In this document: positions 2,280-63,600 of the stretch, one piece after another
How the letters are laid out: every line of letters starts with the position of its first letter
Numbering within the stretch: the first letter of the stretch is position 1
Source: an uncultured Candidatus Saccharibacteria bacterium
GTDB taxonomy: Bacteria > Patescibacteriota > Minisyncoccia > Phycocordibacterales > UBA1006
NCBI GenBank assembly: GCA_964350165.1
Contig: CAYGJA010000002.1
Coordinates: 119,822-183,821, forward strand
Direction: 5' to 3'
DNA: 64,000 bases
Made by a program: the position numbers and the translations under genes
The notes under the pieces: generated by a model
Seen by the model: the letters and a program-made list of their open reading frames with translations, nothing else
Told to the model about the DNA's origin: nothing
Databases searched by the model: none

Positions 2280-2896
2280 TTATGTTTTCTAGATATACCA
2301 ACAAGCATGGTCTGACTTTGGTTGAGCTGGTTCTGGCAGTTGCTATTGGATCACTTATTACTCTTGCGATTTATAATTTTGCCGGAAACACCATTCGTTA
2401 TCAAGATGAATTTAAGGGGCGCCTAGCTATGCTGGATGATGTCCGTCAAGTTTTACGCCCGATGGCTTCGGAGTTGAGGCAAATGCAAGATTCTAGTGTG
2501 GGTGGATATGCAATAGAATTGGTAGCCTCAGACACGATTGTTTTTTTTAGTGATATTTTGGCAAACAATTATCGAGAAAGAGTTCGGTATTTTTTGGAAG
2601 AAGGATCCCTAAAAAAAGGAGTGGTTACTCCTACTGGAAACCCTTTAGCCTATGATTTGAACAACGAAGTGGTCACAACACTCATGAAAAATGTTACCAA
2701 TGTGACTTTTCGTTATTATGATGAATCATATTCAGGGGCAACGGGGCAAGGCGCTCTTGTTCATCCCTTTCCCGCCATCGACGTCCGCATGGTTGAGATT
2801 GATGTTTCTATTGATGACGATGCCAATGTTTTACCAAACCCTTTAGGGCAAGTTAGTGCATTTGCACAATTGCGAAACCTAAAAGATAATTTATAA
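2276..2896 (+). CDS. Prepilin-type N-terminal cleavage/methylation domain protein (minor pilin)
   Basis: The N-terminus contains HGLTLVELVLAVAIGSLITLAIY, a prepilin motif. There is a 4-nt overlap with the upstream gene, indicating an operon. Confidence 0.6.
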   Translation: MIMFSRYTNKHGLTLVELVLAVAIGSLITLAIYNFAGNTIRYQDEFKGRLAMLDDVRQVLRPMASELRQMQDSSVGGYAIELVASDTIVFFSDILANNYRERVRYFLEEGSLKKGVVTPTGNPLAYDLNNEVVTTLMKNVTNVTFRYYDESYSGATGQGALVHPFPAIDVRMVEIDVSIDDDANVLPNPLGQVSAFAQLRNLKDNL

Positions 2897-2898
2897 AC

Positions 2899-4323
2899 AT
2901 GCACCACTTACTTCGATCACAGAATCAAAAAGGAACTGCCCTGGTGACTCTGTTGGTTTTTGTGGGGATTGCTTTGTATATTTCCGTAGCATTTGTTTCT
3001 TGGGCCGGAACTAGTGTCCGTGCTGGGCGGCACTTGGAACAACGAGAACAGGCTTTTCATGTAGCGGAAGCCGGGCTCGAGTATTATCGTTGGTTCTTGG
3101 CTCACTCTGCTATTAATCCAGGAGAAGCGCCTCCGACCCCTGACGAACCTCTTAATGTTTTTGATGCAGAAGGAAATCTGATTGGCTCAGCCACCTTTTC
3201 TATTACCGCCCCAATTGCAGCTTCAACGGTTATTCAGGTTGATGTCACTGGCTCTGTGACCGGAACATCTTCTGGTGTGGATAGAACCTTGCGAAGCAAT
3301 TTGGCTATTCCTTCTTTTGCAAAATATTCCCTGGCTTCTAACAATGATGTTCGCTTGGGAGAAGGAACAGAAGTGTTTGGAGAGCTTCATTCTAATGGGG
3401 GAATACGTTTTGATGGTTTTTCTAACAACATTGTAACGAGTGCCAAAGAATCATATGATGACCCTGATCATACTGGGCCGTTTGAGTTTGGTGTGCATAC
3501 TCACATTAGTCCAGTTGATCCCACACCACCATCAGCTGTTCCTGAGCGACCTGATGTTTTTGGTGCCGGGAGACGATTTCCGGTACCACAAGTAGATTTT
3601 GCCGGTATTACTCAGGATTTATCTAATTTAAAAACAGCTGCTCAGAATGACGGCCTGTATTTTGCTCCTTCGGGCCGCCAGGGTTATCAAATAGAATTTA
3701 ATACTAATGGAACTTTTGATATTTGGGAGGTGAGAAGTGTTTACAGCTTGAGTTCTAATTGTGCTTGGTATTCTGGAGATAGTAGTTCTTGGAGTGTGAG
3801 ACGAACCAGAAATCGACAAACATATACTATGCCGAACAACGGCATTATCTTTGTGGAAGATAACGTTTGGGTACAGGGCCAAATTAATGGTGAGCGAGTA
3901 ACGATTGGCTCTGGTGTTTTCCCTGATACTCCGGCTACTAGGACCAGTATTATCGTTAATGAGGATTTGCTTTACAGCAACTATGATGGAACCGATGCTA
4001 TTGCCTTGATTGCTCAGCAAGACATACACGTTGGTTTTTATTCACAGGACACGCTTCGTATCGATGCGGCTTTGGTGGCTCAGAATGGACGAGTAGGGAG
4101 GCCTTATTATTCCGTCGCTTGTGGTTCATACGCTATTCGTGACGCAATCACTGTAACCGGAATGATTGCCAGCAATGAGCGCTACGGTTTTGCTTATACC
4201 AATGGCACTGGTTATGACCAGCGAGACTTAATTTATGATGCTAATTTGTTGTATTCGCCACCGCCTAATTTTCCACTTACTTCTGATGAATACGAAATTC
4301 TAACCTGGGAAGAATTAGAATAA
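2899..4323 (+). CDS. PilX-like type IV pilus minor pilin/assembly protein
   Basis: The N-terminal TM helix is followed by QAFHVAEAGLEYYRW, which resembles the PilX N-terminal motif. It is the next gene in the same operon. Confidence 0.5.
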   Translation: MHHLLRSQNQKGTALVTLLVFVGIALYISVAFVSWAGTSVRAGRHLEQREQAFHVAEAGLEYYRWFLAHSAINPGEAPPTPDEPLNVFDAEGNLIGSATFSITAPIAASTVIQVDVTGSVTGTSSGVDRTLRSNLAIPSFAKYSLASNNDVRLGEGTEVFGELHSNGGIRFDGFSNNIVTSAKESYDDPDHTGPFEFGVHTHISPVDPTPPSAVPERPDVFGAGRRFPVPQVDFAGITQDLSNLKTAAQNDGLYFAPSGRQGYQIEFNTNGTFDIWEVRSVYSLSSNCAWYSGDSSSWSVRRTRNRQTYTMPNNGIIFVEDNVWVQGQINGERVTIGSGVFPDTPATRTSIIVNEDLLYSNYDGTDAIALIAQQDIHVGFYSQDTLRIDAALVAQNGRVGRPYYSVACGSYAIRDAITVTGMIASNERYGFAYTNGTGYDQRDLIYDANLLYSPPPNFPLTSDEYEILTWEELE

Positions 4324-4345
4324 TCTTGAGTGGTATACTGAGTAA

Positions 4346-7138
4346 ATGTTAGATCCTGGTTCAAATGAGACGCCGCTTTCTTCTCCAAATTTAGAATTGG
4401 AGCAATTACGAGCCCAAGTAGAAAAGCAAGAACAGCAATTGGCAGAATTAGGAGTTCAGCCAGAACGCGCACGGGTGCAGGCCGCAGAGCAGGTGGTGCA
4501 ACAGGTTAGGGCAGAATCAGAGCAGGCCCCTTCCGCTCAAACCCTTCAAAAAGAAGTTAATTCGATTGATGTTGCTCGATATGGGCTTTCTCCAGAGCAA
4601 GACGATGTAATTATCCAACAGTTATTCTCTCTTGCCTCCGAGCGAGGCATCAAGGAAACCTTTGCGGCTATCCAAAAAATGAATAATCCTCACATTGATG
4701 ACGATTTTCATCGTTTTTTAGTGCAGTACCTTATCAATAATGCTCGTTTGCCTGGTATCCCAGCCGGGACCGAATTGTTTCGAGCTATTAATATGTCTCT
4801 TTTTGAGGTTACTCTGCCAGAAGTGCACCCGGGAGAAAAGGGTAAGCAATTGCGAGAATTAATGAATCTCATGGAGCAATTTTATGCGGGAATGCTTTCG
4901 GTTGCTACCGATAGTAGCAACTCAACTCATAATTATTTTACCCTTGAAATTGCCAACACGGCTACCTCCGACCACATTGTTTTTTATTGTGGAGTACCGA
5001 ACACAAAAATGCAGTTGTTTGAAAAACAGATTTTAGGACTGTATCCGGAGGCAAGAATCGAAAGGGTTCCGGATGACTATAATGTTTTTAATCGAGAGGG
5101 GGCAGCAGTAGGGGCTTATGCAAAATCCGTAAAAAGCGATCTGCTTACTATTAAGACCTATGACAAGATAGACCATGATCCATTAGACATTGTTCTTAAC
5201 GTTTTTTCAAAGTTAGACACTTTTGGTGAGGGGGCAGCACTGCAGATTATCGTCCAGCCAGCCGGCGATAAGCATTTTAAAAGAACGAAAAAAGCTCTTG
5301 AAAAAGTAAAAGATGGCCTTAGTGTACAAAAAGCAGAAAGAGAGGTGGACAGTGTGGTGGCGGGAATTTTTAAAATTGGAAAAGAAATAATTATGGGGGC
5401 CAAAAAAGACGAACTTGGCCAAGAGAAAAAGATTGACGAGGCTGCTATACAGTCTATGAATCAAAAAATTGAAAGCACAATTGTGGAAACAAACTTGCGC
5501 ATTGTGGCTTCGTCTCACAACGAAGTTCGAGCAAAAAAAATACTAGGAGACATGCAGTCTGCGTTCAATCAATTTGCCGACACGCAGGGCAATGCCATTC
5601 AGTTTGCTGAATTAACGGGGGCGCTAGAAAAAGATTTGTTTCATCGATTCAGTTATCGTCAATTTTCTCCAAAACAAGCCCTGAACCTTAATCTGCGAGA
5701 ACTGGCTACTATTTTCCATTTTCCTCAGGATGTTGATAATGCTCCCCAGCTGAAGCAGGCAGCCGCCAAAACTGCTCCGGCGGATATGCTCGTTCCAAGC
5801 GAGGGTCTTTACATGGGAAAGAATCAGCATCGAAACCAAGAGCGGAATATTTTTATGACACCCAAGGACAGAGTTCGGCATTTCTATGTTATTGGACAAA
5901 CTGGTACCGGTAAGACTTATTTTCTTCGACATTTGATAAAACAAGATATTGAAAATGGAGAGGGTTGTTGTTTTATTGATCCACACGGGTCTGATGTTGA
6001 CGAGATTTTGTCATATGTTCCCAAGGAAAGAATTGACGATGTTATTTATTTTGATCCTGCTTATGCGCCCAGGCCAATGGGGCTTAATATGCTCGAATAT
6101 GATACTCGTTTTCCAGAGCAAAAAACTTTCGTAGTAGACGAAATGCTAAGTATCTTTAACAAATTATTCGACATGAAGACAGCCGGAGGGCCCATGTTTG
6201 AGCAGTATTTTCGTAATGCCACCATGTTGGTGATTGACGATCCGTCTTCGGGGAACACCCTACTAGAGATTTCGAGGGTTTTGGCCGATGACAAATTTAG
6301 GGAAATGAAGCTTTCGCGATGCCGTAATCCAATCGTGATTCAGTTTTGGCGTGAGGTGGCCAGCAAGGCTGGAGGAGAAGCTTCTTTGCAAAATATTGTT
6401 CCGTACATCACAAGTAAGTTTGACGTATTTTTGTCAAATGAAATTATGCGCCCTATTGTTGGGCAACCAAAATCTGCTTTTAATTTTCGAGATATCATGG
6501 ATAATCGCAAGATTTTGTTAGTTAATCTTTCCAAAGGAAGACTAGGGGAGATAAATGCAAACCTAATTGGACTTATTTTGGTAGGAAAGATTTTGATGGC
6601 GGCTTTGTCTCGAGCAGATACGGCCGACCTTAAAACGCTGGCGCCGTTTTATCTTTACATCGATGAATTTCAGAATGTAACCACAAATTCTATTTCTCAA
6701 ATTCTTTCTGAGGCTCGAAAGTATGGCTTGGGTCTTAATATTGCCCATCAGTTTATTGCTCAGCTTCAGGATGATATTAAAAATGCCGTGTTTGGAAACG
6801 TTGGTTCGGTTGGGGTTTTTCGTATTAGCCCCGACGATGCCGAATACCTCGAACGCAGGTTGGCGCCAACTTTTTCTGCTCAAGACATCATGAAGTTGAC
6901 CATGGGAAATTATTATTTACAGATGCTTGGCAACGGCACACCCTTAAAACCTTTTAATGTGCAGGTTCCAGAGATTATCGGCGGCCGAATGGATATTGTT
7001 CCAAAATTAAAGCAATATTCATATCTAAAATATGGCCGAGATAGAGATCAGGTTGAAAATGAAATTATGGCAAAATATGAAGCCGCTCGAAAACCAGCAG
7101 AACAAGCCCCTGCGCCACCAAATCCTTTTGGTCTATAG
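4346..7138 (+). CDS. P-loop NTPase, HerA/VirB4/TraG(VirD4)-like (AAA_10/DUF87-type), with an N-terminal coiled-coil region
   Basis: It has a Walker A motif (VIGQTGTGKTYFL) followed by FIDPHGSD, which resembles the DPKGE-like motif of TraG/TrwB. It has a Walker B motif (FYLYIDEFQNV). There is no N-terminal TM segment. Confidence 0.45.
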   Translation: MLDPGSNETPLSSPNLELEQLRAQVEKQEQQLAELGVQPERARVQAAEQVVQQVRAESEQAPSAQTLQKEVNSIDVARYGLSPEQDDVIIQQLFSLASERGIKETFAAIQKMNNPHIDDDFHRFLVQYLINNARLPGIPAGTELFRAINMSLFEVTLPEVHPGEKGKQLRELMNLMEQFYAGMLSVATDSSNSTHNYFTLEIANTATSDHIVFYCGVPNTKMQLFEKQILGLYPEARIERVPDDYNVFNREGAAVGAYAKSVKSDLLTIKTYDKIDHDPLDIVLNVFSKLDTFGEGAALQIIVQPAGDKHFKRTKKALEKVKDGLSVQKAEREVDSVVAGIFKIGKEIIMGAKKDELGQEKKIDEAAIQSMNQKIESTIVETNLRIVASSHNEVRAKKILGDMQSAFNQFADTQGNAIQFAELTGALEKDLFHRFSYRQFSPKQALNLNLRELATIFHFPQDVDNAPQLKQAAAKTAPADMLVPSEGLYMGKNQHRNQERNIFMTPKDRVRHFYVIGQTGTGKTYFLRHLIKQDIENGEGCCFIDPHGSDVDEILSYVPKERIDDVIYFDPAYAPRPMGLNMLEYDTRFPEQKTFVVDEMLSIFNKLFDMKTAGGPMFEQYFRNATMLVIDDPSSGNTLLEISRVLADDKFREMKLSRCRNPIVIQFWREVASKAGGEASLQNIVPYITSKFDVFLSNEIMRPIVGQPKSAFNFRDIMDNRKILLVNLSKGRLGEINANLIGLILVGKILMAALSRADTADLKTLAPFYLYIDEFQNVTTNSISQILSEARKYGLGLNIAHQFIAQLQDDIKNAVFGNVGSVGVFRISPDDAEYLERRLAPTFSAQDIMKLTMGNYYLQMLGNGTPLKPFNVQVPEIIGGRMDIVPKLKQYSYLKYGRDRDQVENEIMAKYEAARKPAEQAPAPPNPFGL

Positions 7139-14463: not shown

Positions 14464-14474
14464 AACTATAGGGA

Positions 14475-15677
14475 TTATTTGCTAATTGCGTCTACTCTTG
14501 ATTTTACATCGCGAACCGTGTTCATAAAAGCCACATATGCATCATAGGGGGATTCATATGGGGAAAAGTAAGCATGCACGTCACCATCTCGCCACCATTT
14601 AGTGCACATGTAATAAAAATGATCTGAAGTTTGAAGCTTTCTCCAATCTTCGATAAGTTTTTTATTCTTTGTTCCTTTGATGGATTTTTCTAGGGCATAG
14701 ATAGAAGCAATGGCTGCTTTTTGAATATCATTTCCGGTCCAAGCGGTTAGGTCTCGTTCGGTGTCTGCCCAGGTTATGACATTGGGAATATCCACTTCGT
14801 CTTTTGGTGTTAATTCAAGAGCGGTTTCTGTGGTGGTTCGAAAAGTAATATCAGGCCGTTTGAATAATTCACCAGGAAGAGCTTTTAGGAAATGGAAAAC
14901 ACCGGTGTCTTCCCATTGATGTTCACCAAAGGTTTCATAATCCATAAAGAGGTTAATGGTTTCGCCGTTGCCTTGATGGCTTTCAATCCAGGTTGCGTAT
15001 TTTTCGGTTGTGAGGGGCCATTCGCTCCAATTTTGTTCAGAAAAACGAAAAGCAACATCATCTGATAGCCGATAATTCTTGAGCAAGAGTGAAATATTGG
15101 TTGTATCTTGTGGACGATAAACAAAATTGGGTGACCTCCAACCGAGAATCGGATCCCATCCCTCTGTTAATATCCCAACATATCCTGCCTGTTCCGCCCA
15201 TTGTCCTAGTTCGTTATTATAAGAAAGCTCGGTATTTCGAAAAACTTTTGGTTGCACTCCAAATAATTCATTAAGAAGATTGCGATGGAGGGTGACCTGT
15301 TCTTCGAATTCTGGTCGAGAATAGAAAAAAGCCAAAGAGTGGTGATAGGTATCGGCCACCAGATCCACGCGACCAGTTTTTACGAGGTCTTGAAAAGAAG
15401 CAAGAACTTCGGGGGCGTATTCTCGAAATTGCTCCAAGGCAACTCCAGACAAAGATAAAGATACTTTGAATTGAGGGTGTGTTTCGAGTAGTTCTTTTAA
15501 GATGGCATTGGTGGGGAGGTATGATTTTTTGGCGACTTTCTCAACAATCCTTCGATTGTTGAGATCGGTGGCACTGGTGTCATTAAAATAATCATGGTCA
15601 CTCCCAACGTCAAAAATTTTGTATTTTTTAATACGATAGGGCTGATGAACGTGGAGATAAAGACAGATGGAAAGCAT
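14475..15677 (-). CDS. Glycoside hydrolase family 57 (alpha-amylase/branching-enzyme-like)
   Basis: It has the N-terminal LYLHVHQPYR motif, the GH57 hallmark HQP. Confidence 0.6.
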   Translation of the reverse strand: MLSICLYLHVHQPYRIKKYKIFDVGSDHDYFNDTSATDLNNRRIVEKVAKKSYLPTNAILKELLETHPQFKVSLSLSGVALEQFREYAPEVLASFQDLVKTGRVDLVADTYHHSLAFFYSRPEFEEQVTLHRNLLNELFGVQPKVFRNTELSYNNELGQWAEQAGYVGILTEGWDPILGWRSPNFVYRPQDTTNISLLLKNYRLSDDVAFRFSEQNWSEWPLTTEKYATWIESHQGNGETINLFMDYETFGEHQWEDTGVFHFLKALPGELFKRPDITFRTTTETALELTPKDEVDIPNVITWADTERDLTAWTGNDIQKAAIASIYALEKSIKGTKNKKLIEDWRKLQTSDHFYYMCTKWWRDGDVHAYFSPYESPYDAYVAFMNTVRDVKSRVDAISK

Positions 15678-54085: not shown

Positions 54086-54598
54086 TTGTATAATGATTTT
54101 GTGAAAAAAATAGTAGTAATGGGCTGTGCGGCTTCAGGAAAAACCACTTTGGCGAAAAAAATAAGCAAAATTATTGATGTTCCGGTTTATCACTTGGACA
54201 GTATTTTTTGGGTGAAAAAAGGAGGAATCAAGCAGGATTTGTTTCTGGAAAAAATCACAAAATTGATGCAGAGGGAAGGATGGGTTATAGAGGGTGATTT
54301 TTCTCGATCAATCACTTTTGAGCCACGTTTACATGCGGCTGATATCATAATTTATTATGATCTTTCTAAGATTATTATTTACTGGCGCCTCTTGAAGCGG
54401 CTTGTAAAAAATTTCTCCAAAGTGCGCGCAGAGATGCCAGGCAACAATACAGAGCTCTCTATATTTATTCCAACCGCAAAACATATTTGGAATTTTCGCT
54501 CAACAAAAGCCCTGGAAAAGATTGAGGAATATAAAAATGCTAAAAAGGTTTTTATTTTAAAAACCCTAAAAGACGAAAAAAAGCTCTTCGCTGGATAA
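54086..54598 (+). CDS. Small P-loop ATPase (topology-modulation protein/adenylate-kinase-like)
   Basis: It has the Walker A motif VVMGCAASGKTTLAKK. The size is 170 aa. Confidence 0.5.
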   Translation: MYNDFVKKIVVMGCAASGKTTLAKKISKIIDVPVYHLDSIFWVKKGGIKQDLFLEKITKLMQREGWVIEGDFSRSITFEPRLHAADIIIYYDLSKIIIYWRLLKRLVKNFSKVRAEMPGNNTELSIFIPTAKHIWNFRSTKALEKIEEYKNAKKVFILKTLKDEKKLFAG

Positions 54599-54713: not shown

Positions 54714-56366
54714 CTAAGACTTATCTGAAAATAAATAGTCTCTTTCATCAACATAACTACCTTTTGGGTACAGAAGATTTCGATACTTCTCGAGTAGTGC
54801 TTTTACCTCATATTGCAGACTCCCCTGAATCTCTTTTTCATAGATACTCCTTAAATCTGAAGTGGCTTGATTTTTAAGATCGATATTTTGTTCATCCCGA
54901 ACATAAAGTACTCCCGAGTTGTAGTGTTTAGTTCTTTCATTAACATGATTACGATGCTCCGTAATCTTTATCATTACCGAACCTAGGCCTTCAGATTTCT
55001 CACTATCTTGTATGTCAACAAATTTATTCTCTAACCAATCGCTATACCCGTGTTTTTGTAAGAGATCCTTAAACTCTTGTGTGAATTGTTGGCCAATTTT
55101 CTGGTGTTTTAACTCTTCTCGTTGGTATGTTGCGTGAACGAGAAGAGAAAGTATCATTTGAGCATTTTTAATATCCTCAATGCTTCCACATAACAACATG
55201 TCGGTTCGCCCAGCAAAGTGTGGCGTTAAGCTCTTTCCATCAGCACCAGGAACGAAGTGTTTTCCAACAACAACCTGACCAGCATCGTAAATGGTTACAC
55301 CATTTATCCCTTGGTTGTGATCAAGAAAAGCAGGAGTGTACTGTAAGGTTTTTGTGCGACTCAACATAAAGGCAAGTGTTGCAATACCGCAACCTTCATT
55401 GTCAAGACGTTGCGGAATGCACGCTTGATAATAAGACTCAGGATCAGTATTTATTCCAGAGCTTTTTTTCTTTTTTTCTAACACCGCAAGACAAAGTTCG
55501 ATCATTTCAGCATTAGCTACAGGATTAGCGACAAAACATGTATCTTGTCCATGTGCAACGAAGCCACCGGTTTTTTTAAGAAAATGACTCAAGGAAGAAT
55601 TTTGACCGGTATGAGCTTTAAGCCCTATGGGCAATAAGGTTTTATCAAACAAAGCTCGCTCAAGCTTTTCTTTTGAAGCTTCCTTAATGACTTCTTTAAT
55701 CTCTCGATCTAGTTCGTTAGTTTCCTTAAAGAAATTCCTTATTGCTTGCTCGGCATACTGCTTGATTCTTTCTTTGCTCTCGAAGACGCTTGATTTGTTT
55801 TTTTCTAGAAAGAGCTTTAGAAATTGAATTTGGTCAAAAGTTATACGATATCCCTTTGAGATATCTTCAAATAGGGTCTTTTGCAGCCCTTGTTCAATAC
55901 CTTGATTATCTAGCATTTTTTCTGTTGTAATTAACTCATCTTTGTGCGGAATTGCTTGTTGATCTTGAAGCAATCCAAAAACATTGCCCAGACTAGAAAC
56001 TCCTCTTATCTCTGAAAGATAATTAAGCCAAAATTTATGCAAAAAACTATACGTCTCGTCAGAATGAGCTAATTTTTGAAATAATGTTTCAGAGACAGTG
56101 GTTGCGTTTTTTATTCTAGTAAAACAATCACCCAGATCAGAAACTACTTTTGTCTTTGAAAGATAATCAAGCCAAAATTTATGAAGGTTTTCATACACCT
56201 GGTCACTTTTCAGTATTGACCGATATTTGTCTTCACCAAACAAGTGCCCCAACGAGCTAGAGTTTTTTATTGTTGAAAGGGTATCACAAAACTCACGCAC
56301 CAAAGCCTCATTTTCTGGTGTTTCATACTGATTATTCCTTTGTGGCTCAGCAAAAGACTCACTCAT
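54714..56366 (-). CDS. Hypothetical 550-aa protein with an N-terminal tandem approximately-45-aa repeat, possibly effector-like
   Basis: The repeats YENLHKFWLDYLSKTKVVSDLGDCF and YSFLHKFWLNYLSEIRGVSSLGNVF match at both protein and DNA level. The C-terminal half contains spaced Cys/His residues (DTCFVANP, EGCGIATLAF, MLLCGSIEDI). Confidence 0.4.
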   Translation of the reverse strand: MSESFAEPQRNNQYETPENEALVREFCDTLSTIKNSSSLGHLFGEDKYRSILKSDQVYENLHKFWLDYLSKTKVVSDLGDCFTRIKNATTVSETLFQKLAHSDETYSFLHKFWLNYLSEIRGVSSLGNVFGLLQDQQAIPHKDELITTEKMLDNQGIEQGLQKTLFEDISKGYRITFDQIQFLKLFLEKNKSSVFESKERIKQYAEQAIRNFFKETNELDREIKEVIKEASKEKLERALFDKTLLPIGLKAHTGQNSSLSHFLKKTGGFVAHGQDTCFVANPVANAEMIELCLAVLEKKKKSSGINTDPESYYQACIPQRLDNEGCGIATLAFMLSRTKTLQYTPAFLDHNQGINGVTIYDAGQVVVGKHFVPGADGKSLTPHFAGRTDMLLCGSIEDIKNAQMILSLLVHATYQREELKHQKIGQQFTQEFKDLLQKHGYSDWLENKFVDIQDSEKSEGLGSVMIKITEHRNHVNERTKHYNSGVLYVRDEQNIDLKNQATSDLRSIYEKEIQGSLQYEVKALLEKYRNLLYPKGSYVDERDYLFSDKS

Positions 56367-56377
56367 GGTTAAATGTA

Positions 56378-56581
56378 TTAAGCAGGTATTCTCTCTGGTT
56401 CTTTTTCCGGCACTGGTTCTACTTTTTCCGGCACCGCCTCTGGTTCTTCTAGGGGCTGCTCTAGAGGCAAAGGATCTTCTTGAGGTTCCTGAAAAGGTAT
56501 TTGTTTTGGAATTCCTGGCTGTTCGGCAATGGGATTAAACCACTCATAAATTTTTTTGGATGTTGTTGCTTGTTCAGACAT
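56378..56581 (-). CDS. Small Pro/Glu-rich ORF immediately upstream of 54714-56366 in another frame, possibly a detached N-terminus
   Basis: It encodes a PEKVEPVPEKEPERIPA low-complexity sequence. There is an 11-nt gap to the next ATG and no RBS. Confidence 0.25.
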   Translation of the reverse strand: MSEQATTSKKIYEWFNPIAEQPGIPKQIPFQEPQEDPLPLEQPLEEPEAVPEKVEPVPEKEPERIPA

Positions 56582-56800
56582 AATGTTGGGATTATTAGCT
56601 TATATATCTATACATAATACCATTATAGATACGCCAAAAAAATAATAATGACACAAAACCACAAAAATCACCTGAGAGGGTGGTTTTTGTGTTGAGGCTG
56701 AAGAATAAGGTGCTAGGTATCTTTTTATAGACATTTCTACTAACAACTAAAAACAAAAAAAGATGATTGAAGGATCTTGAGTTTGAACAATTCAAATACC

Positions 56801-58213
56801 CTACAATGAATAATGAGAATTTTTAATATCGCGTTTCCAAAGCGACATGGGTCTGGTGAGTAAGAAGTACATAATTTCTTGCGGTGTATAGTGATCTTGT
56901 ACCGAATATAGCGCATCTAAACCACTGGTAACAATTGTCCGAAAGTGTTCTTTTTCGCGACTGCTTTCCAGGAGCTCTTCTTTTTTTTGTATGTAAAACT
57001 GCATTGCTTGTTTGATGAAAGAGGGTCTATCGCCCGCCGCAAGACGTGCGAATATTTCATCGCGCATGTTGTCTATTTGCTCGGTCTCACCTCTGTTTCT
57101 TGGGCGCACCTCGCCATTGTGCATCGCCGGCTTTGACCCCCCCCGCCAATCTTTATACGATAATTCAAGCTCATGAAATACGGCATGCATCTGTTCGTGG
57201 TCTATTGTGTTTTGAATTTGACGCTGGAAATAAGGCTTGGATTTTTCCTGTGTTGTTGCATTTATCAGTATTGTTGGTATGAAATCATCTTTATGTTTTG
57301 TGTAAAAAAAGACACCATGTGTGGAACCTTTTTTATTTTCTAGTGCGCAATAGTCTTTTTCTGTTTTTACCATTACCATCAATGAAAAAGGAGTTTTTTT
57401 AAACTCTATTGACTCAGGGTCGAGTGAATTTCTTAATTCAATAGCTTTGTCGTTAGGAATTTCTTGATTTGTCCTTTTTATTACATCTAGGATAAAATCA
57501 ATCTTTGGGATTTCTTTTTGCATAGCAGAATAGCTTCTATAAAAAGAGTCCATTTTTGTGTGGGCATATTTCTGTAATGTAATCGTCGTTTGATTAAAAA
57601 ATTCTACCTCACCATTCTTTTGTTGAGTTATAACATTAAAGGCATTATCTACTAAATCATGCAAAAAAACTGATGTTATTGTCTCGGGGTTACGCTGATA
57701 TTGATTTTTAATTGCAGAAATAGCGTTTTCTGCTGCTCTTTCTAGAGAGTTGCGATATTGCTCTACTGCACTTTTAACTTTACAGAGAACTTCTTCGCGC
57801 AAGGCTGGGGTGATGTTGCGAATACTTGCTGGTAGTCGGATGATTTCCCAGAAATGCTCCTGAATAAAAGCCCTCTGTTGTTGAAGATCTAATTTCTGGA
57901 TGTTTTGCAGTATTCTTTCTTTTTCACGTAGCCGGTGTTCGAGCTCAGCTTTTTCTTCTCGTTTTTTTTGTAGAGCCACAAAGACTTCTTTTGCTTTTTC
58001 GTACCGTTCTGCTTGTCGCTCCGTGAGTCTCTGATAATAATCCAAAGACTCTTCTTCTATAATAGCTCTTCTATTTTGACGATTAAATTGATGAAAAGGT
58101 TCAATCATGTTTTTAGTTTGATGTGAATCTGTAAAACAAATTGTACCATTTAAAATGAACATCGTGAGCGTTATATGGATCTCCGCCGACTGGTGGAGAT
58201 CGAACCTAAACAA
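56801..58213 (-). CDS. Hypothetical 470-aa protein with an HExxH motif and an N-terminal coiled coil, possibly a zinc-metallopeptidase-like effector
   Basis: It has TIDHEQMHAVFHE (HEQMH). It has the coiled-coil sequence EKAKEVFVALQKKREEKAELEHRLREKERILQNIQKLDLQQQ. Confidence 0.35.
   Translation of the reverse strand: MFRFDLHQSAEIHITLTMFILNGTICFTDSHQTKNMIEPFHQFNRQNRRAIIEEESLDYYQRLTERQAERYEKAKEVFVALQKKREEKAELEHRLREKERILQNIQKLDLQQQRAFIQEHFWEIIRLPASIRNITPALREEVLCKVKSAVEQYRNSLERAAENAISAIKNQYQRNPETITSVFLHDLVDNAFNVITQQKNGEVEFFNQTTITLQKYAHTKMDSFYRSYSAMQKEIPKIDFILDVIKRTNQEIPNDKAIELRNSLDPESIEFKKTPFSLMVMVKTEKDYCALENKKGSTHGVFFYTKHKDDFIPTILINATTQEKSKPYFQRQIQNTIDHEQMHAVFHELELSYKDWRGGSKPAMHNGEVRPRNRGETEQIDNMRDEIFARLAAGDRPSFIKQAMQFYIQKKEELLESSREKEHFRTIVTSGLDALYSVQDHYTPQEIMYFLLTRPMSLWKRDIKNSHYSL
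58176..58210. repeat. Cassette-boundary repeat R1 (ggatctccgccgactggtggagatcgaacctaaac), overlapping the PLD gene stop codon
   Basis: It is a member of the GGTTCGAACCTAAAT repeat family. It has a hairpin GATCTCC-N10-GGAGATC. Confidence 0.7.
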
Positions 58214-59240
58214 GATAAATCAGCATTTCTACGGCAGCACCTGTAAGTTTGTCCCACCAGGAGAGAGGGTGATCGGCGGGCTGGTATGCGCGAGCTCGGG
58301 CTAGCCAGTCGGAAACAATTTTCTTTAGACGGACTACGGTTTCTCGATTATTGAGCTCGATGCCGACCTCAGCGTTAAGGCGAAAAGAAAAAACATCTAA
58401 ATTTTGTGAGCCAACCAAGGCGGTTTTGGAATCGATAGTAATTGTCTTGGCATGATTCATGTCCTTGGAAAGATAGATTTCGGCACCAAATTTGTGGGCT
58501 TTGTTGAGAAAATAGATGTTAATGGCATCAATGCTTTCTTGATCAGTTCGGCTGGGAACCAAAAGGATAACGCGAATCCCCCGCAGGCAAGCCTGGTGGA
58601 TTTCTGCCAAGATGTATCGCTTGGGAGCAAAATACGGCGTTGTGATGATAATTTCATGTTCTGCCTCTACAAAATAGCGATGGTAGTCTTGCTGGAGATG
58701 ATGAATCTGAAGGGCGGGGAAGTGTTCGCTTATTTTTGCTCGAGCACGCCCCAGTAAGGTGGTGTTTTTTAGCGCGAGCACTTCCGGGTTTTTTCCTCCT
58801 GCCCAATGATAATCGCACACAAACATATTGGTCAGTCTCTGGATAAGATGCTTGTTTGTAGTTGAGATAGCCAAATCGGCCCAATTTTTTGCTGATTCGT
58901 GAATGTTGACACCACCTGTAAAGACAATTTCCTGGTCAACAATGATGATTTTTCGATGTAGCCGATGTCGATAGCGACTTGCCAAGTGAAGCTCGGCTCC
59001 TGCTTTTTCAAGCTTCTGTTGTTGAAGCTTTGGAAATGCACGACTGCCAAAACCGTCTAACACCAAAACCACTCGCACTCCTGATTCGGCTTTGGATCGA
59101 AGCAGGCTAACAAAGTCGTATTCAGGTGTATCCGGCAAGAAAATATACATCTCAATAAGAATGTATTCCTTTGCGCTCGCCAAGGTGTGGTACATATGTT
59201 TCCAAGCCTTGTGTGACTTGGTATAAAAACGATAGCTCAT
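58206..59240 (-). CDS. Phospholipase D-family protein (two HKD motifs, cardiolipin-synthase/PLD-like)
   Basis: It has HRKIIIVDQEIVFTGGVN and NHAKTITIDSKTALVGSQN. Confidence 0.65.
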   Translation of the reverse strand: MSYRFYTKSHKAWKHMYHTLASAKEYILIEMYIFLPDTPEYDFVSLLRSKAESGVRVVLVLDGFGSRAFPKLQQQKLEKAGAELHLASRYRHRLHRKIIIVDQEIVFTGGVNIHESAKNWADLAISTTNKHLIQRLTNMFVCDYHWAGGKNPEVLALKNTTLLGRARAKISEHFPALQIHHLQQDYHRYFVEAEHEIIITTPYFAPKRYILAEIHQACLRGIRVILLVPSRTDQESIDAINIYFLNKAHKFGAEIYLSKDMNHAKTITIDSKTALVGSQNLDVFSFRLNAEVGIELNNRETVVRLKKIVSDWLARARAYQPADHPLSWWDKLTGAAVEMLIYLV

Positions 59241-59331
59241 ATTTCTAGGCTAAGTATACCAATAGATTAGAAAGACATAGTCAACGTGCATTCGCGAAGC
59301 AATCAAAAAGCTGAATATACCAGCTATCAAT

Positions 59332-59357
59332 CAACTGGCTGGGGTTCGAACCTAAAT
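59332..59357. repeat. Cassette-boundary repeat R2 (caactggctggggttcgaacctaaat), overlapping the stop of 59352-60038
   Basis: It has the perfect 10-bp palindrome GGTTCGAACC. Confidence 0.75.
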
Positions 59358-60038
59358 ATCAATATGCGGCGCAGTGTTGCCCTTAAAGTCCCGTGGATAT
59401 TCTTCTACTTGGACATTAAAAGATGTTGTGTGGCCAGCAAAATAGACTGTCACTTTTGCATCCCCTCGACCAACGATAATAGGAGATGCTGTAAAGCTGG
59501 GTGGTGAATCTTGGCTGGTGCGAGTGTCTGTGATTTGGAAAGACAAGACTCGTGTGTTTGAGGACTCTAGGGCCAGAGGGGTGTCTGGGTTAATTTGTGA
59601 CACATATCGCGCAAAGCCGTCAAAAGAAGGCGCACCGTTAGCTTGTTCAATACGGAGTTCGGGGCCAAATCTACCCCAGTTTTGCTCCACAAAGAATTGA
59701 TTGCTTGAAGGCTTATTTTTGTTGTCGACAAGACTAATAAGCATGTTTTGTCCACATTTAGCTTTTATGTATCGTCTGGAAACCGTGCAGACAGAAATCT
59801 TAGAAAACGCCGGGTTGGGCTCTTGGTTTAGGTTCAAATTAAGCGGATTAAATATCTCGACTACTGGTCGGGGGGCGGGCAAGATTCGTATGTGATTAGC
59901 GTATACATAGCCTATCCATGGAATCACGGAAAAGCTGATTAGGACGAATGTGAAAAATATCTTGGTAAATTTTTGCTCTTTGTCAGGAGTGGGCAAGTCG
60001 GCGACCTTCTGTTCAGGTGGCAACAAGTCGTTTGTCAT
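59352..60038 (-). CDS. Signal-anchored secreted hypothetical protein
   Basis: Its N-terminal TM is IFFTFVLISFSVIPWIGYVYA. It has no recognisable domain. Confidence 0.4.
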   Translation of the reverse strand: MTNDLLPPEQKVADLPTPDKEQKFTKIFFTFVLISFSVIPWIGYVYANHIRILPAPRPVVEIFNPLNLNLNQEPNPAFSKISVCTVSRRYIKAKCGQNMLISLVDNKNKPSSNQFFVEQNWGRFGPELRIEQANGAPSFDGFARYVSQINPDTPLALESSNTRVLSFQITDTRTSQDSPPSFTASPIIVGRGDAKVTVYFAGHTTSFNVQVEEYPRDFKGNTAPHIDI

Positions 60039-60105
60039 AAAATTATTTTACCATAAGTCTAATCGAGCCAATCAAGAGGTTCTTGTAAAATAGAAGCCAA
60101 ATCGG

Positions 60106-60138
60106 ATCTCTGCCAACTGGCTGGGGTTCGAACTTAGA
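60106..60138. repeat. Cassette-boundary repeat R3 (atctctgccaactggctggggttcgaacttaga)
   Basis: It shares 25 of 26 nt with R2 and R4. Confidence 0.75.
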
Positions 60139-60179
60139 ATAAGAGACAGATCGCTAGATTAGTTTTTCAGCTCATCAAT

Positions 60180-60548
60180 TTGTGCAACAATGAGTCTATG
60201 AAAATTAACACTTTTTCAAAAATAGTCTTGGTCGTGAACATCGTGGCTCTCATTGGCACAGCCTTCCTGTCTTTTAGCCCGTTGCTACTTGTTTTGGTTG
60301 CCCTTAGTTTATATATAATTTTTTCGAAAGAATTATCAGCAAAGTTCCTTTCATTTTTCTCGTATAGCATGAGTTTGGGCTATATCGCCGTATTAGTGAT
60401 GTCAGTCGTGAGGGAGCCGAATATTCTTAGCGCTTACATTGGAGATTATTCTTTGTCCGTGACAGCATTTTTTTACATCAAACAGATCTTGATTATATTC
60501 TTGATTATCGGTTTTTTGTTTGTTGCCCGAATGTTTAGAAAGAAATAA
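60180..60548 (+). CDS. Small integral membrane protein (3-4 TM helices), unknown function
   Basis: It is hydrophobic (IVLVVNIVALIGTAFLSFSPLLLVLVALSLYIIF...). Confidence 0.4.
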   Translation: MCNNESMKINTFSKIVLVVNIVALIGTAFLSFSPLLLVLVALSLYIIFSKELSAKFLSFFSYSMSLGYIAVLVMSVVREPNILSAYIGDYSLSVTAFFYIKQILIIFLIIGFLFVARMFRKK

Positions 60549-60578
60549 ACATCATGCACTTCATGAACGTTAAATCGT

Positions 60579-60611
60579 AGCTCTGCCAACTGGCTGGGGT
60601 TCGAACTTAGA
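60579..60611. repeat. Cassette-boundary repeat R4 (agctctgccaactggctggggttcgaacttaga)
   Basis: It is near-identical to R3. Confidence 0.75.
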
Positions 60612-60658
60612 AGCCTGGAGTCCTTGCAGGTGATGTGTCTTGTTGCTATAAGTAAGTC

Positions 60659-61555
60659 ATGAAAATAAGCTCAAAAATCAAACTAATAATCGGATTACTT
60701 GGGATTGTTGCGGTCGTGCTCTTTGTGTCTAGAGAAGGTTCAAGCATGTCTATGTGGGATCAGTCTAATGTTGCCGGGCCATCCGAAACCATACAAGAAA
60801 GCAGTGCAAAGGACAGGAGAGGGGACTCCAATGAGCCGCTAACGAATACTGTTGTCCTCGTCGATAAGCCACTGGACCAAGATGGTTTTACTGTTTTCCC
60901 AATAACCAAGGCAATGTATGACGAGATCCCTGCGTTTGAGTATCAGCATCAGTTTGCGCAACCATATATGGATGAGTGCCTTGACGCGATCGGGGGCACG
61001 TCCGCATACCTGCGCTGTGTTGAGGGATTTGAGATCGTAAAATATCAAGAGTACGCACGACGAGAGGGAGACTGTTTGATAATTGCCCTAAGAGAGGCGG
61101 GGTCGTTAGAGATTTGTGATCGCAATACGCCTTCTAATCCTGAAAGTTATTACTATGCTACATATATGCCTAAATTAGGGCACGTTTACTTAACGCAGGG
61201 CAACGAATATAGCAGTTACACCTACGTATCTGAAAAAGGAAATGAGATCGCAGTATCTTCAGAGCTGCTCCACCCGATACCTGAAACTAGTTATTATATT
61301 GAAAATCGCATAGATAACGGAGAGTCACGGTACGGATGGAATGGGGTTCGGATTAGGCAACTGCACGAGGGGGTACTGTCTACTGTTTTTGAGTTTAATC
61401 CATTTGATTATGGTGAGACATATGCATTTGAGCGCATTAAATTTGTTGAGCCCGGCAAGTTTTTGTTTAAAAAGTCGCCCGCACCAGAGTATTTAGACCC
61501 AGGGCCGATTGATTGGTTATATGGCGAGGTGAGCTATAAAGTAAAGGCTGAATAG
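60659..61555 (+). CDS. Secreted hypothetical protein (signal anchor; Cys-containing)
   Basis: Its N-terminus is IKLIIGLLGIVAVVLFVS. It has no recognisable domain. Confidence 0.4.
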   Translation: MKISSKIKLIIGLLGIVAVVLFVSREGSSMSMWDQSNVAGPSETIQESSAKDRRGDSNEPLTNTVVLVDKPLDQDGFTVFPITKAMYDEIPAFEYQHQFAQPYMDECLDAIGGTSAYLRCVEGFEIVKYQEYARREGDCLIIALREAGSLEICDRNTPSNPESYYYATYMPKLGHVYLTQGNEYSSYTYVSEKGNEIAVSSELLHPIPETSYYIENRIDNGESRYGWNGVRIRQLHEGVLSTVFEFNPFDYGETYAFERIKFVEPGKFLFKKSPAPEYLDPGPIDWLYGEVSYKVKAE

Positions 61556-61597
61556 CCATTCAAGATAGGAGAATCATCTGATATTTTGCCCTATATA

Positions 61598-61677
61598 ACG
61601 TTCACGACGTTCAGACGTTCACAAAAACCCTAGCGCTAAGGATGCTCCGCGGATTGAGGAGGGTTCGAACCTAAATA
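61598..61677. repeat. Cassette-boundary repeat R5, full-length 80-nt form, overlapping the stop of 61671-62306
   Basis: The sequence is aACGTTCAcgACGTTCAgACGTTCAcaaaaaCCCTAGCGCTAAGGatgCTCCGCGGattgaGGAGGGTTCGAACCtaaat. It contains three 9-bp direct repeats plus the palindromes TAGCGCTA, CCGCGG and GGTTCGAACC. Confidence 0.8.
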
Positions 61678-62306
61678 CTCAGCACTTGTACATAAAAAGT
61701 CTTTTGGAGGATATGGAGTAGCTCCCTAGATCTAGCAATTTGACGGTCGGCATACTCACCAATAGCGCCTTCAATTGGTGCTGTAATTGTAAAATCTCGA
61801 AAGAAGGCCTCCTTGTCAGATTCTGAAACCTCTGACCAAAAAGTTTTTGGTAAGCCAAATTTGCCGTCACGGTGACGCATTATTCTTTGTGTAAGTCTCT
61901 GTAAATAAATATCTTTGCTGTCGGGAAAAAGGAATAAAAACTCGTAATCTCCTGAGTGGGGGTCTAGGATTTTATGTACGGTCGGTGGGTGCTTGATCGG
62001 GCACTCAACAACTACTCTTGAGCCGGCACTATTTATCGCTTGCTGGGCCTGGCGTAGATAATGTTCCATCCATACCTCTTTGCCTTCCCCGCGGTTAACT
62101 CTTTTAAAGGTGTCTCCCGGTTCAAGATTGTATTTCTCAACGATCTCATTTTGGATCATTTGGTCAAGGTCGACCAGGACATATGAGAACTCTTTCCTCA
62201 ATTTCTCGGCAAAAGTGCTTTTGCCCACAGCAGTAGTGCCGTATAGATAGATAACTTTTGGTGAACGGCCGGTGTTGAGTTGCGCGAGATATTCTTGAGT
62301 TTTCAT
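61671..62306 (-). CDS. P-loop kinase-like protein (AAA/zeta-toxin/gluconokinase-like fold)
   Basis: It has the Walker A motif VIYLYGTTAVGKSTFAEKL. The size is 211 aa. Confidence 0.45.
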   Translation of the reverse strand: MKTQEYLAQLNTGRSPKVIYLYGTTAVGKSTFAEKLRKEFSYVLVDLDQMIQNEIVEKYNLEPGDTFKRVNRGEGKEVWMEHYLRQAQQAINSAGSRVVVECPIKHPPTVHKILDPHSGDYEFLFLFPDSKDIYLQRLTQRIMRHRDGKFGLPKTFWSEVSESDKEAFFRDFTITAPIEGAIGEYADRQIARSRELLHILQKTFYVQVLSI

Positions 62307-62325
62307 ATCCTCATCATACCACCCT

Positions 62326-62404
62326 AACGTTCACGACGTTCAGACGTTCACACAGACCCTAGCGGTAAGGATGCTCCCCGTACTAGACAAGTTCCGAACT
62401 TTGG
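62326..62404. repeat. Cassette-boundary repeat R6, full-length form with a degenerate 3' end
   Basis: The sequence aacgttcacgacgttcagacgttcacacagaccctagcggtaaggatgctccccgtactagacaagttccgaactttgg is about 80% identical to R5. Confidence 0.75.
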
Positions 62405-62454
62405 ATTGGATAGAAATTGAGAAGGGATTTCAGTTATTTAGAATGCATAACGAA

Positions 62455-63492
62455 TTATTCAAGACAGTTCTCCAGTAGTTTCAGTTTGGAATTAGTTAAA
62501 TCAATTTCTATCTCAATTCCATTAGGCAGTACTATTTGGGGGTCAGTATGACCAAACTCGGCATTTGTGACTATTGGCAGGTCGGATTGACCGAACTCAA
62601 TTGAAACGACTTCCTTGACTGCTTCGTCTAGCTCCTCTTTTTCTTCGTCCGAATAGTTTCGGGCACGTGCAAAAATGATGCCGTTTATTTTTCCGAAAAC
62701 ACCCTGAACGCCGTAATTTCTTAACATCCATTTTACTGACGAGATAGAAGGTTTTTCTTCTGAAGTCTCAAAAAACAGTATTTTATCATTCCAAAAGTCA
62801 TCATTAGGATAGAAGGTTGTGCTTTTTATAAACTCTAGCACCTCAATACATCCTCCAAAGAGCTTTCCTGATACGACACCTGATCCCTGAATGGTCCTCA
62901 TTCCTTCGTCTTCCTTCAGCTCTTTCGTTTTGCCTAGGTTCTCTTCCTTATGCCAGTCGAGGTAACCGTCACAATACTGACCAAAGTGAGGATATTCGTA
63001 AGTGTCTGAGGGGCTAAACAAAATATCGTATACATGTTGCTTGAAAGCATCTGGCAAGCTTTCCATCTGTGAAAAACCTGCCATTACTGATGGACCATTG
63101 AAGGTCACTAGGCCTAATTGATTTATGTAGGTGAGCAGTGTTGTCGTATCTGAATAGCCCATAAGTATCTTGGGGTTATTTGCAATTACTTCTTTATCCA
63201 AAAATGGCAAAATACGTACAGAGTCATCTCCTCCAATTGAAACCAGGATAGCATTCACTTCTTTGTCAGCAAAAGCATCGTTGATGTCTTTTGCCCTAAG
63301 CTTTGCGTTGGCTAAGCTTGGGTCGCCAACAGCACGAGTGGATGGATATTCTTTAATATTCAGCCCCCACTCCTTGAGAACCTTAAGCCCATTTTCATAT
63401 ACAGCAGGAAAAGTGTTCGGACCTGCCCACGAGGGCGAGAGTACTGCGACGGTGTCGCCAGGATTTAGTTTTTTTGGCTTTTTGTAATTCAT
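62455..63492 (-). CDS. S66-family LD-carboxypeptidase (MccF/LdcA-like)
   Basis: It has PGDTVAVLSPSWAGP and the nucleophile context MGYSDTTTLLTY. Confidence 0.55.
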   Translation of the reverse strand: MNYKKPKKLNPGDTVAVLSPSWAGPNTFPAVYENGLKVLKEWGLNIKEYPSTRAVGDPSLANAKLRAKDINDAFADKEVNAILVSIGGDDSVRILPFLDKEVIANNPKILMGYSDTTTLLTYINQLGLVTFNGPSVMAGFSQMESLPDAFKQHVYDILFSPSDTYEYPHFGQYCDGYLDWHKEENLGKTKELKEDEGMRTIQGSGVVSGKLFGGCIEVLEFIKSTTFYPNDDFWNDKILFFETSEEKPSISSVKWMLRNYGVQGVFGKINGIIFARARNYSDEEKEELDEAVKEVVSIEFGQSDLPIVTNAEFGHTDPQIVLPNGIEIEIDLTNSKLKLLENCLE

Positions 63493-63532
63493 TTCCTGAT
63501 TATATCAAAGTTCTGAGTCCTGTTGGGGTATA

Positions 63533-63563
63533 CAAAAAGACCCTTATGAATAGGGGTCTTTTT
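63533..63563. terminator. Bidirectional hairpin terminator (AAAGACCC-ttatgaata-GGGGTCTTTTT)
   Basis: It was read directly and lies between R7 and the LD-carboxypeptidase gene start. Confidence 0.55.
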
Positions 63564-63600
63564 GATGGCTCCGCGGACTGAGCAGGGTTCGAACCTAAAT
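63564..63600. repeat. Cassette-boundary repeat R7 (gatggctccgcggactgagcagggttcgaacctaaat), overlapping the GNAT gene stop
   Basis: It has the hairpin GCTC-N9-GAGC followed by GGTTCGAACCTAAAT. Confidence 0.75.

Follow-up and report, generated by a model that had tools for sequence, protein, structure and literature searches.

Among described systems, the one closest to the locus treated here is that of Pup with PafA and Dop, in which Pup is a small, disordered protein whose gene always lies beside a gene of the PafA family, and in which Dop deamidates a glutamine (PMC2588565, PMC3511204). We analyzed a stretch of 64,000 nucleotides (nt), hereafter the window, from an uncultured Candidatus Saccharibacteria bacterium (contig CAYGJA010000002.1 of assembly GCA_964350165.1), and in it the interval at 54.7-58.2 kb, where a large gene, designated gene A, is directly preceded by a small open reading frame (ORF) encoding a protein rich in proline and glutamate. 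What is new here is the conserved pairing, in Saccharibacteria-type bacteria, of a small protein carrying the motif QPG[IV]P with a rare protein for which a ligase-like fold is predicted.

Three ORFs occupy the minus strand of this interval: gene A, the small ORF, and a second large gene, designated gene B. The original prediction had recognized two large proteins, and both of these ORFs are real, but the interval holds three genes and the small ORF between the two had been overlooked.

A small Pro/Glu-rich protein encoded beside gene A

Gene A (54714..56366, minus strand) encodes a protein of 550 amino acids (aa), consisting of an N-terminal helical region with a duplicated unit of 48 aa and, towards the C-terminus, of a conserved domain of about 355 aa (residues 196-550, encoded at 54714..55781 on the minus strand). 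The small ORF (56378..56581, minus strand) encodes 67 aa and ends with its stop codon 11 nt before the gene A start codon. Its acidic product, with a Pro content and a Glu content of 21% each, is probably disordered and has the sequence QPGIP at residues 21-25.

A small Pro/Glu-rich ORF of 64-92 aa adjoins the large gene at eight of the nine informative loci. It lies directly upstream in the window and at six homologous loci (L003, L005, L010, L011, L016, and L017), and directly downstream at L018, where the gene order is reversed. The pairing persists even where the gene order differs, a good indication that both products work together. QPG[IV]P is invariant in the small proteins, located about 20-40 residues from the N-terminus and followed by an acidic tail rich in Pro, Glu, and Lys; the residues that do not vary are QPG and two further prolines. 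Their C-termini (...ERIPA, ...FPEK, ...KKEI, ...VEEE, ...PAEV, and ...EKVE) are not conserved. A match of the small ORF to LIMLP_16695 (E 0.0026) was found in one of five partners and was dropped, and literature searches returned nothing relevant on the QPGIP motif.

To learn how widespread gene A is, we searched large protein and genome collections. Ten relatives were found in 5.8 billion protein clusters and three more by a profile search, giving about 14 clusters in total; the GTDB species-representative genomes searched contributed one match, an uncultured Candidatus Saccharibacteria, and metagenomes contributed five loci, while viral matches amounted to zero. The exact gene A protein is present on Logan contigs and on one NCBI contig. 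The family is very small and occurs in candidate-phylum-type (Saccharibacteria-type) genomes. What its members have in common is the C-terminal domain of about 355 aa, with 33-54% identity, and the N-terminal helical repeats (about 35-48 aa each) vary from none to around a dozen between relatives.

No match above noise was obtained in scans against Pfam, NCBIfam, PADLOC, and PHROGs, for which we used genes A and B, the small ORF, isolated domains, and every one of the 11 family members, and none of the 11 gene A family members had a Pfam or NCBIfam match even at E 10. A sequence search of the PDB with single gene A sequences yielded nothing, and the corresponding profile search yielded only a sorting nexin (E 0.14). 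The expectation that neither large protein carries a housekeeping signature is thus borne out by sequence, since no family was matched, and neither is universally conserved: gene A is limited to the clusters and the single GTDB match given above, and gene B matches only itself.

The genomic context of the homologues is variable. They are located upstream of rpoB, between miaA and a ribosomal protein operon, beside rpsB-tsf, at fmt-def, and at ksgA, so that their neighbours are rpoB/C and ribosomal protein genes, fmt/def, rpsB/tsf, and ksgA, and in the window a P-loop kinase gene and gene B. The content of guanine plus cytosine (GC) of the homologue gene is slightly below that of its flanks at all six loci examined. 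Location amid core genes at differing sites indicates an accessory gene without a fixed location rather than a gene of an island or cassette. At L005, the ribosomal protein operon beside the homologue (14470-15376) runs from S5 to L15 without L30. A ribosomal operon lacking L30 is a known trait of genomes of the candidate phyla radiation, and its presence here supports the candidate-phylum assignment of the gene A family. At L004, a tRNA-like sequence (2085-2160) lies directly upstream of the homologue on the opposite strand and may mark a point of rearrangement or insertion. At L012, the repeat region of the homologue (1-147) and its C-terminal domain (472-1734) are in separate ORFs, which points either to a frameshift or misassembly within the repeats or to a form of the gene that is split or truncated in nature.

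The N-terminal duplication noted previously in gene A is real, but its period is 48 aa and not 45, and its longest exact DNA run is 15 nt and not about 25 (26 of 27 positions match when one mismatch is allowed). The two units (55923..56210, minus strand; residues ~53-100 and 101-148; direct repeat D4) include DNA repeats of 63 nt each at 55977-56039 and 56121-56183, with 83% identity and a spacing of 144 nt (48 aa). Local alignment of the protein units scored 94, against 21.9 +/- 4.3 and a maximum of 39 in 500 shuffles. The core of the unit reads Y-x-x-LHKFWL-[DN]-YLS-x4-VS-x-LG-x-x-F. In two homologues (P0004 residues 20-92 and P0013 residues 80-152, at L003/L015), the repeats gave sub-threshold matches to RPN13_C (UCH-binding, DEUBAD) of 27-28 bits against a cut-off of 39.3 (E ~3-5e-6); these are probably composition or repeat noise, if curious given the ubiquitin-like analogy.

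Predicted fold and invariant residues of the gene A family

The core of the carboxylate-amine ligases is a saddle-shaped sheet of six strands; conserved helices follow strands 3 and 6, and extra helices lie at the C-terminus (PMC2588565). The superfamily is recognized by GhExE in strand 1 (Ex[EH]; Mg2+/ATP), acidic residues in strands 2-3, [HD]x[NH] in strand 4, which is [HQ]x[NH] in PafA, one or more arginines in or before strand 5, and Ex[RK]xxD in strand 6 (PMC2588565). Gene A was modelled with AlphaFold2 from the 11-sequence alignment, giving a predicted template modelling score (pTM) of 0.69. The predicted local distance difference test score (pLDDT) is mostly 75-96 over residues 151-340 and 371-550 and falls to 42-68 at 341-370, and the model is weak in the N-terminal 147 residues and at 350-365. 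It predicts a strand at 247-252, a short strand at 277-279, a helix at 286-303, strands at 312-317 and 388-393, a helix at 396-413, and then five helices. Leaving aside residues 350-365, where the model is poor, the order of these elements matches that of the published core (PMC2588565). On this model, the most likely fold for the C-terminal domain is that of glutamine synthetase, as found in the carboxylate-amine ligases (Dop, PafA, glutamate-cysteine ligase, and YbdK).

The invariant polar residues of the gene A family are K250, H252, N285, Q314, C316, Y360, D361, R387, T388, D389, and C393. Strand 1 carries an invariant G248-[IL]-K250-x-H252, in which the first Glu of the superfamily motif is Lys and the His is allowed by the motif. 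The strand with the invariant Q314-x-C316 can be equated by strand order, as we infer, with strand 4 of the superfamily; its Gln is as in the PafA variant, and Cys takes the place of Asn/His. The candidate strand 5 (TIYD) has no Arg, and R320 is nearly invariant in the preceding loop. The last core strand reads [NDA]-G386-R387-T388-D389-x3-C393, with R-x-D spacing and no Glu. As judged by the membership motifs in its sequences, the family is not a canonical ATP-dependent ligase; it has the appearance of a ligase-fold relative that has diverged strongly and lost the Mg/ATP ligands. What it would still share with the ligases is a possible mode of action, in which a cradle takes up a small disordered protein.

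The most divergent member, L018 (33% identical), is informative as to where a working site might be located. Its addition drops C326 and H272 from the invariant set, and it keeps the residues on the predicted strands, namely K250/H252, Q314/C316, Y360/D361, and G386-R387-T388-D389...C393, which argues for a site on the sheet. The description of the C-terminal half as Cys/His-rich does not hold: it contains 5 Cys and 12 His in 310 residues, and the whole protein has 1.3% Cys and 3.1% His. Three of these residues, H252, C316, and C393, are invariant across the family.

Gene B, the cassette array, and the wider window

Gene B is best read as beginning at 58108, the first ATG outside the array repeat described below, which gives a protein of 435 aa (56801..58108, minus strand). 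The 470-aa protein originally reported does correspond to a mechanical ORF (56801-58213) with a TTG start at 58213, but the first 35 codons of that ORF overlap the array repeat R0; a further alternative start at 58162 gives 453 aa. Independent gene calls place the start at 58108 (435 aa, Logan) and at 58162 (453 aa, NCBI). Relatives were sought among 5.8 billion proteins by a word-indexed search and among 1.84 billion representatives by full HMMER, and the only matches were to gene B itself; no family match (Pfam, NCBIfam, PADLOC, PHROG) and no PDB sequence match was obtained.

The motif HEQMH occurs once in gene B, as first reported (57185..57199, minus strand; residues 304-308 of the 435-aa form), and the reported coiled coil has its counterpart in a long N-terminal helix predicted, with low confidence, at residues 3-71 (pLDDT 53-77). 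Gene B is a strain-specific orphan and possibly a zinc peptidase. That its HExxH is there by chance, in a lineage-specific coiled-coil protein or in a fast-evolving or decaying gene without peptidase activity, is a serious possibility, if somewhat short of a probable one. One such motif is expected in about one in twenty proteins of this composition (chance expectation ~0.046), no homologue, family, or structure points to a peptidase, and the N-terminal helix is the only part for which the prediction has any confidence at all. The low-confidence model nevertheless has HEQMH opening a helix (304-322) directly after a five-strand sheet (strands 234-284), as in zincins, and the ORF is intact over 435 codons in DNA of 38% GC and identical in independent assemblies. 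Gluzincins resemble gene B in having a single HExxH at a helix start after a beta-sheet, here a predicted one, and perhaps in a downstream glutamate helix: the sequence R-D-E-I-F-A-R-L-A-A-G, about 40 residues past HEQMH, may be similar to it. Unlike them, gene B has no peptidase profile or structural match, and its N-terminal 230 residues are helical and coiled-coil-like. On present evidence, gene B matters little, being one of many strain-specific orphans.

A hairpin followed by a U-rich tract (56660..56691, minus strand) separates gene B from the small ORF. It is a candidate terminator by RNA folding (-13.6 kcal/mol, z -1.96), was not called by a consensus terminator scan, and suggests two transcription units. 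The interval consists of two unrelated accessory units, the small ORF with gene A on the one hand and gene B on the other, and proteins A and B are mutually unrelated. Since no HExxH gene lies beside the gene A module at any other homologue locus, context gives no functional tie between genes A and B. The gene arrangement recurs in independent assemblies of this strain, and a search for an empty-site variant by exact-protein look-ups of the flanking genes returned only this arrangement.

At higher coordinates, the repeat-bounded cassettes that had been reported do exist, but genes A and B are outside that array, whose last repeat is located upstream of gene B. At 58.2-63.6 kb (58140-63600), six single-gene units are delimited by seven related repeats (R0-R6, 50-90 nt each), with repeat cores at 58197, 59343, 60125, 60598, 61662, and 63586 and a further copy at 62325-62399. 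The units encode a PLD-like protein, a 228-aa protein, a 122-aa membrane protein (plus strand), a 298-aa protein (plus strand), a P-loop kinase, and an S66 peptidase. The reported PLD-like neighbour is confirmed by a match to PLDc_2 (E 7e-40), and R0 begins at its stop codon. R0 (58140..58215, minus strand), aligned with R1-R6, is the last and most degenerate copy, with 2 mismatches at its core (58197-58210), and a pattern search allowing up to 2 mismatches found no copy below 58197. For genes A and B, the only repeat is the one upstream; since none lies downstream, they were rejected as cassettes, and, together with the small ORF, they flank the array.

Each of the repeats opens with a GGTTCGAACC-like palindrome as its core, which in four genes overlaps the TAG stop codon, and two subtypes can be distinguished: one has CCCCAGCCAGTTGGCAGAG, and in the other CCCTCCTCAATCCGCGGAGCATCC precedes TGAACGT repeats. 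Assemblies of short reads are interrupted at the array repeats, leaving contigs of 1273-1799 bp. The repeats, which contain GGTTCGAACC, were compared with classical attC sites and tRNA 3' ends; the core resembles a tRNA T-loop, single-strand folds were no better than those of shuffled sequences, and ARAGORN found no tRNA. The array is like integron cassettes in being made of single-gene units separated by related repeats, and unlike them in that its repeats have no clear R''/R' attC cores or significant hairpin and in that no integrase is present within the window. Literature searches found nothing relevant on Saccharibacteria with integrons, nor on the accession SRP128015.

Small P-loop kinase-like genes occur at 54086-54598 (plus strand) and 61671-62306 (minus strand), with weak AAA_18, AAA_33, and Zeta-toxin-like matches. 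The former has 35.5% GC and converges on gene A, and may be part of the same low-GC segment (36-38% at 54-58 kb, against a window mean of 43.7%); the latter is a repeat-bounded unit. In the upstream part of the window, the regions 498-7138 and 25409-48596 encode a pilin-like protein (N_methyl motif), a 930-aa protein matching a type IV secretion coupling protein (TrwB_AAD_bind), and three giant proteins of surface type, with 2722 aa (Laminin_G_3), 912 aa (Calx-beta), and 1519 aa (CBM6/35, SH3, fn3). These pilin-like, coupling-protein-like, and giant surface-type proteins fit an episymbiotic candidate-phylum bacterium.

Possible mechanism and comparison with Pup and ligase systems

As a whole, the interval is best explained by a Pup-like small protein paired with a ligase-fold protein, next to the unrelated orphan gene B, an account that we hold tentatively and would not call probable in its entirety. 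Its parts differ in strength. We lean towards the view that the small and large proteins are an enzyme-substrate or enzyme-partner pair, and regard as doubtful the specific mechanism, by analogy with Dop, in which the large protein acts on the invariant glutamine of QPG[IV]P. In such a mechanism, the gene A product would be a cytoplasmic protein whose concave sheet takes up the small protein at its QPG[IV]P segment; the side chain of the invariant glutamine would then be deamidated or transferred to an amine (transamidation), and the N-terminal helical repeats would form a platform holding the partner or target. The module would work like Pup with Dop/PafA, with thiol/imidazole chemistry in place of phosphoryl transfer, and the acidic Mg/ATP motifs would have been replaced on equivalent strands by the invariant Lys/His, Gln/Cys, and Arg/Asp/Cys. 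Going further, an unrecognized small-protein modifier system of Saccharibacteria-type bacteria could be imagined, in which the disordered QPG[IV]P protein is deamidated or conjugated via its invariant glutamine by an enzyme of the glutamine-synthetase fold with a Cys/His/Asp site instead of Mg-ATP chemistry, either as an independent Pup-like invention or as a device interfering with pupylation in the actinobacterial hosts of these episymbionts; we consider this improbable.

Several results weigh against the pairing of a Pup-like protein with a ligase-fold protein. The model was built from 11 sequences only, and residues 350-365, including the invariant TIYD, have low confidence in it. No sequence link was found from gene A to Pup_ligase, GCS2, Gln-synt, or any other family, and hhalign of the gene A family profile against E. 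coli YbdK gave a probability of 0.1. GhExE, [HD]x[NH], and Ex[RK]xxD do not occur as such in the family, and the invariant residues would cluster on one face of the sheet as read from strand periodicity only. L004 is the only informative locus that has no small partner ORF, the small proteins do not end in the C-terminal G[EQ] of Pup, and no proteasome or Mpa/ARC genes lie near the homologues. For gene B, the model (pLDDT 43.5) is unusable, and its structural matches are to coiled coils only.

An unlikely alternative is that gene A encodes a catalytically dead scaffold of the ligase fold and that the Pro/Glu-rich protein is its disordered structural partner, for example in an envelope or attachment structure. 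The protein lacks the acidic residues by which the superfamily is defined and which bind metal and ATP, the model contains long helical repeats and a C-terminal coiled-coil-like bundle, and Pro/Glu-rich spacers are common in structural proteins. However, about a dozen polar strand residues are invariant although overall identity is 33-54%, which fits a working site better than a relic, and a role in the envelope would have to be reconciled with the lack of an export signal.

The original prediction had proposed that the products of genes A and B are secreted effectors or toxins, and in an extended form of this idea they would target the host bacterium, with the small acidic protein as a chaperone, immunity protein, or antitoxin. 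Small acidic partners are typical of toxin/effector pairs, the genes are rare and accessory and have a lower GC content than the DNA around them, and the TrwB_AAD_bind protein (4346-7138) and pilin-like proteins of the window could provide an export route that is free of signal peptides. Nonetheless, we regard secretion as distinctly unlikely. By Kyte-Doolittle hydropathy in 19-residue windows, both N-termini are hydrophilic and neither protein has an N-terminal hydrophobic signal or a membrane segment (maximum means of 1.44 for gene A and 0.87 for gene B); no toxin or defence family was matched in the scans, and no toxin-like structural match was obtained, so that no positive evidence emerged for the proposal. 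Gene A is conserved at the C-terminus and variable at the N-terminus, the reverse of polymorphic toxins, its small partner has no folded-domain signature, and the homologues are found amid core genes rather than islands, with no secretion genes linked to them at any homologue locus.

The gene A C-terminal domain was also considered as a papain-like or Ulp1/CE-clan cysteine peptidase with Cys326 as nucleophile and His252 or His272 as base. C326 is at the N-terminus of a predicted helix (323-336) and is, with H252, invariant in the 11 closest members; the motif around it, P-x-R-L-x-N-E-x-C-G-I-A-T-I-A-F, resembles by eye the P-Q-Q-x-N-x-x-D-C-G motif of Ulp1/SENP peptidases, and one family member has a faint match to the deubiquitinase family MINDY-3/4 (E 0.029). 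This very improbable reading was rejected: the homologous L018 has Ala at 326 and no H272 while retaining the strand residues, and no such fold is among the top structural matches.

Should the large protein indeed act on the QPG[IV]P protein, the pair would be the second system of a small protein and a ligase-fold protein after Pup-PafA/Dop, it would have been found in a bacterial group with almost no characterized biochemistry, and it would reveal a novel way of building an active site on the glutamine-synthetase fold. The bacteria to which Saccharibacteria attach are Actinobacteria, and Pup is used by that phylum, which makes a link to host manipulation directly testable; literature searches returned nothing relevant on Saccharibacteria with pupylation or PafA/Dop. 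Even if the proposed mechanism is wrong, co-expression and mass spectrometry would have a small and clean target in this conserved pair, with its 67-aa protein and its domain of about 355 aa.

Compared with GCS2/YbdK and the glutamate-cysteine ligases, the gene A product may share, as far as the model predicts, a six-strand cradle in which the third and the last strand are each followed by a helix, with a bundle of helices at the C-terminus, and its first strand opens with G-[IL]-K-x-H where GCS2/YbdK have G-h-E-x-E. It is unlike them in having no acidic metal ligands and in its low hhalign probability against YbdK, and GCS2/YbdK act on small molecules and have no small-protein partner.

Compared with Pup-PafA/Dop, the gene A family has zero detectable sequence similarity, its members have K-x-H, Q-x-C, and G-R-T-D in place of GhExE and the other Mg/ATP motifs, and the gene A product has an added N-terminal array of helical repeats. 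The small protein carries its motif, QPG[IV]P, internally, instead of the C-terminal G[EQ] of Pup, the module has no proteasome/Mpa genes nearby, and it belongs to Saccharibacteria-type genomes, whereas Pup-PafA/Dop belongs to Actinobacteria. What the two systems have in common is that a small, acidic, and, in the present case, probably disordered protein is encoded directly beside a large enzyme, here a putative one, and that the candidate target is a glutamine, the residue on whose side chain Dop acts.

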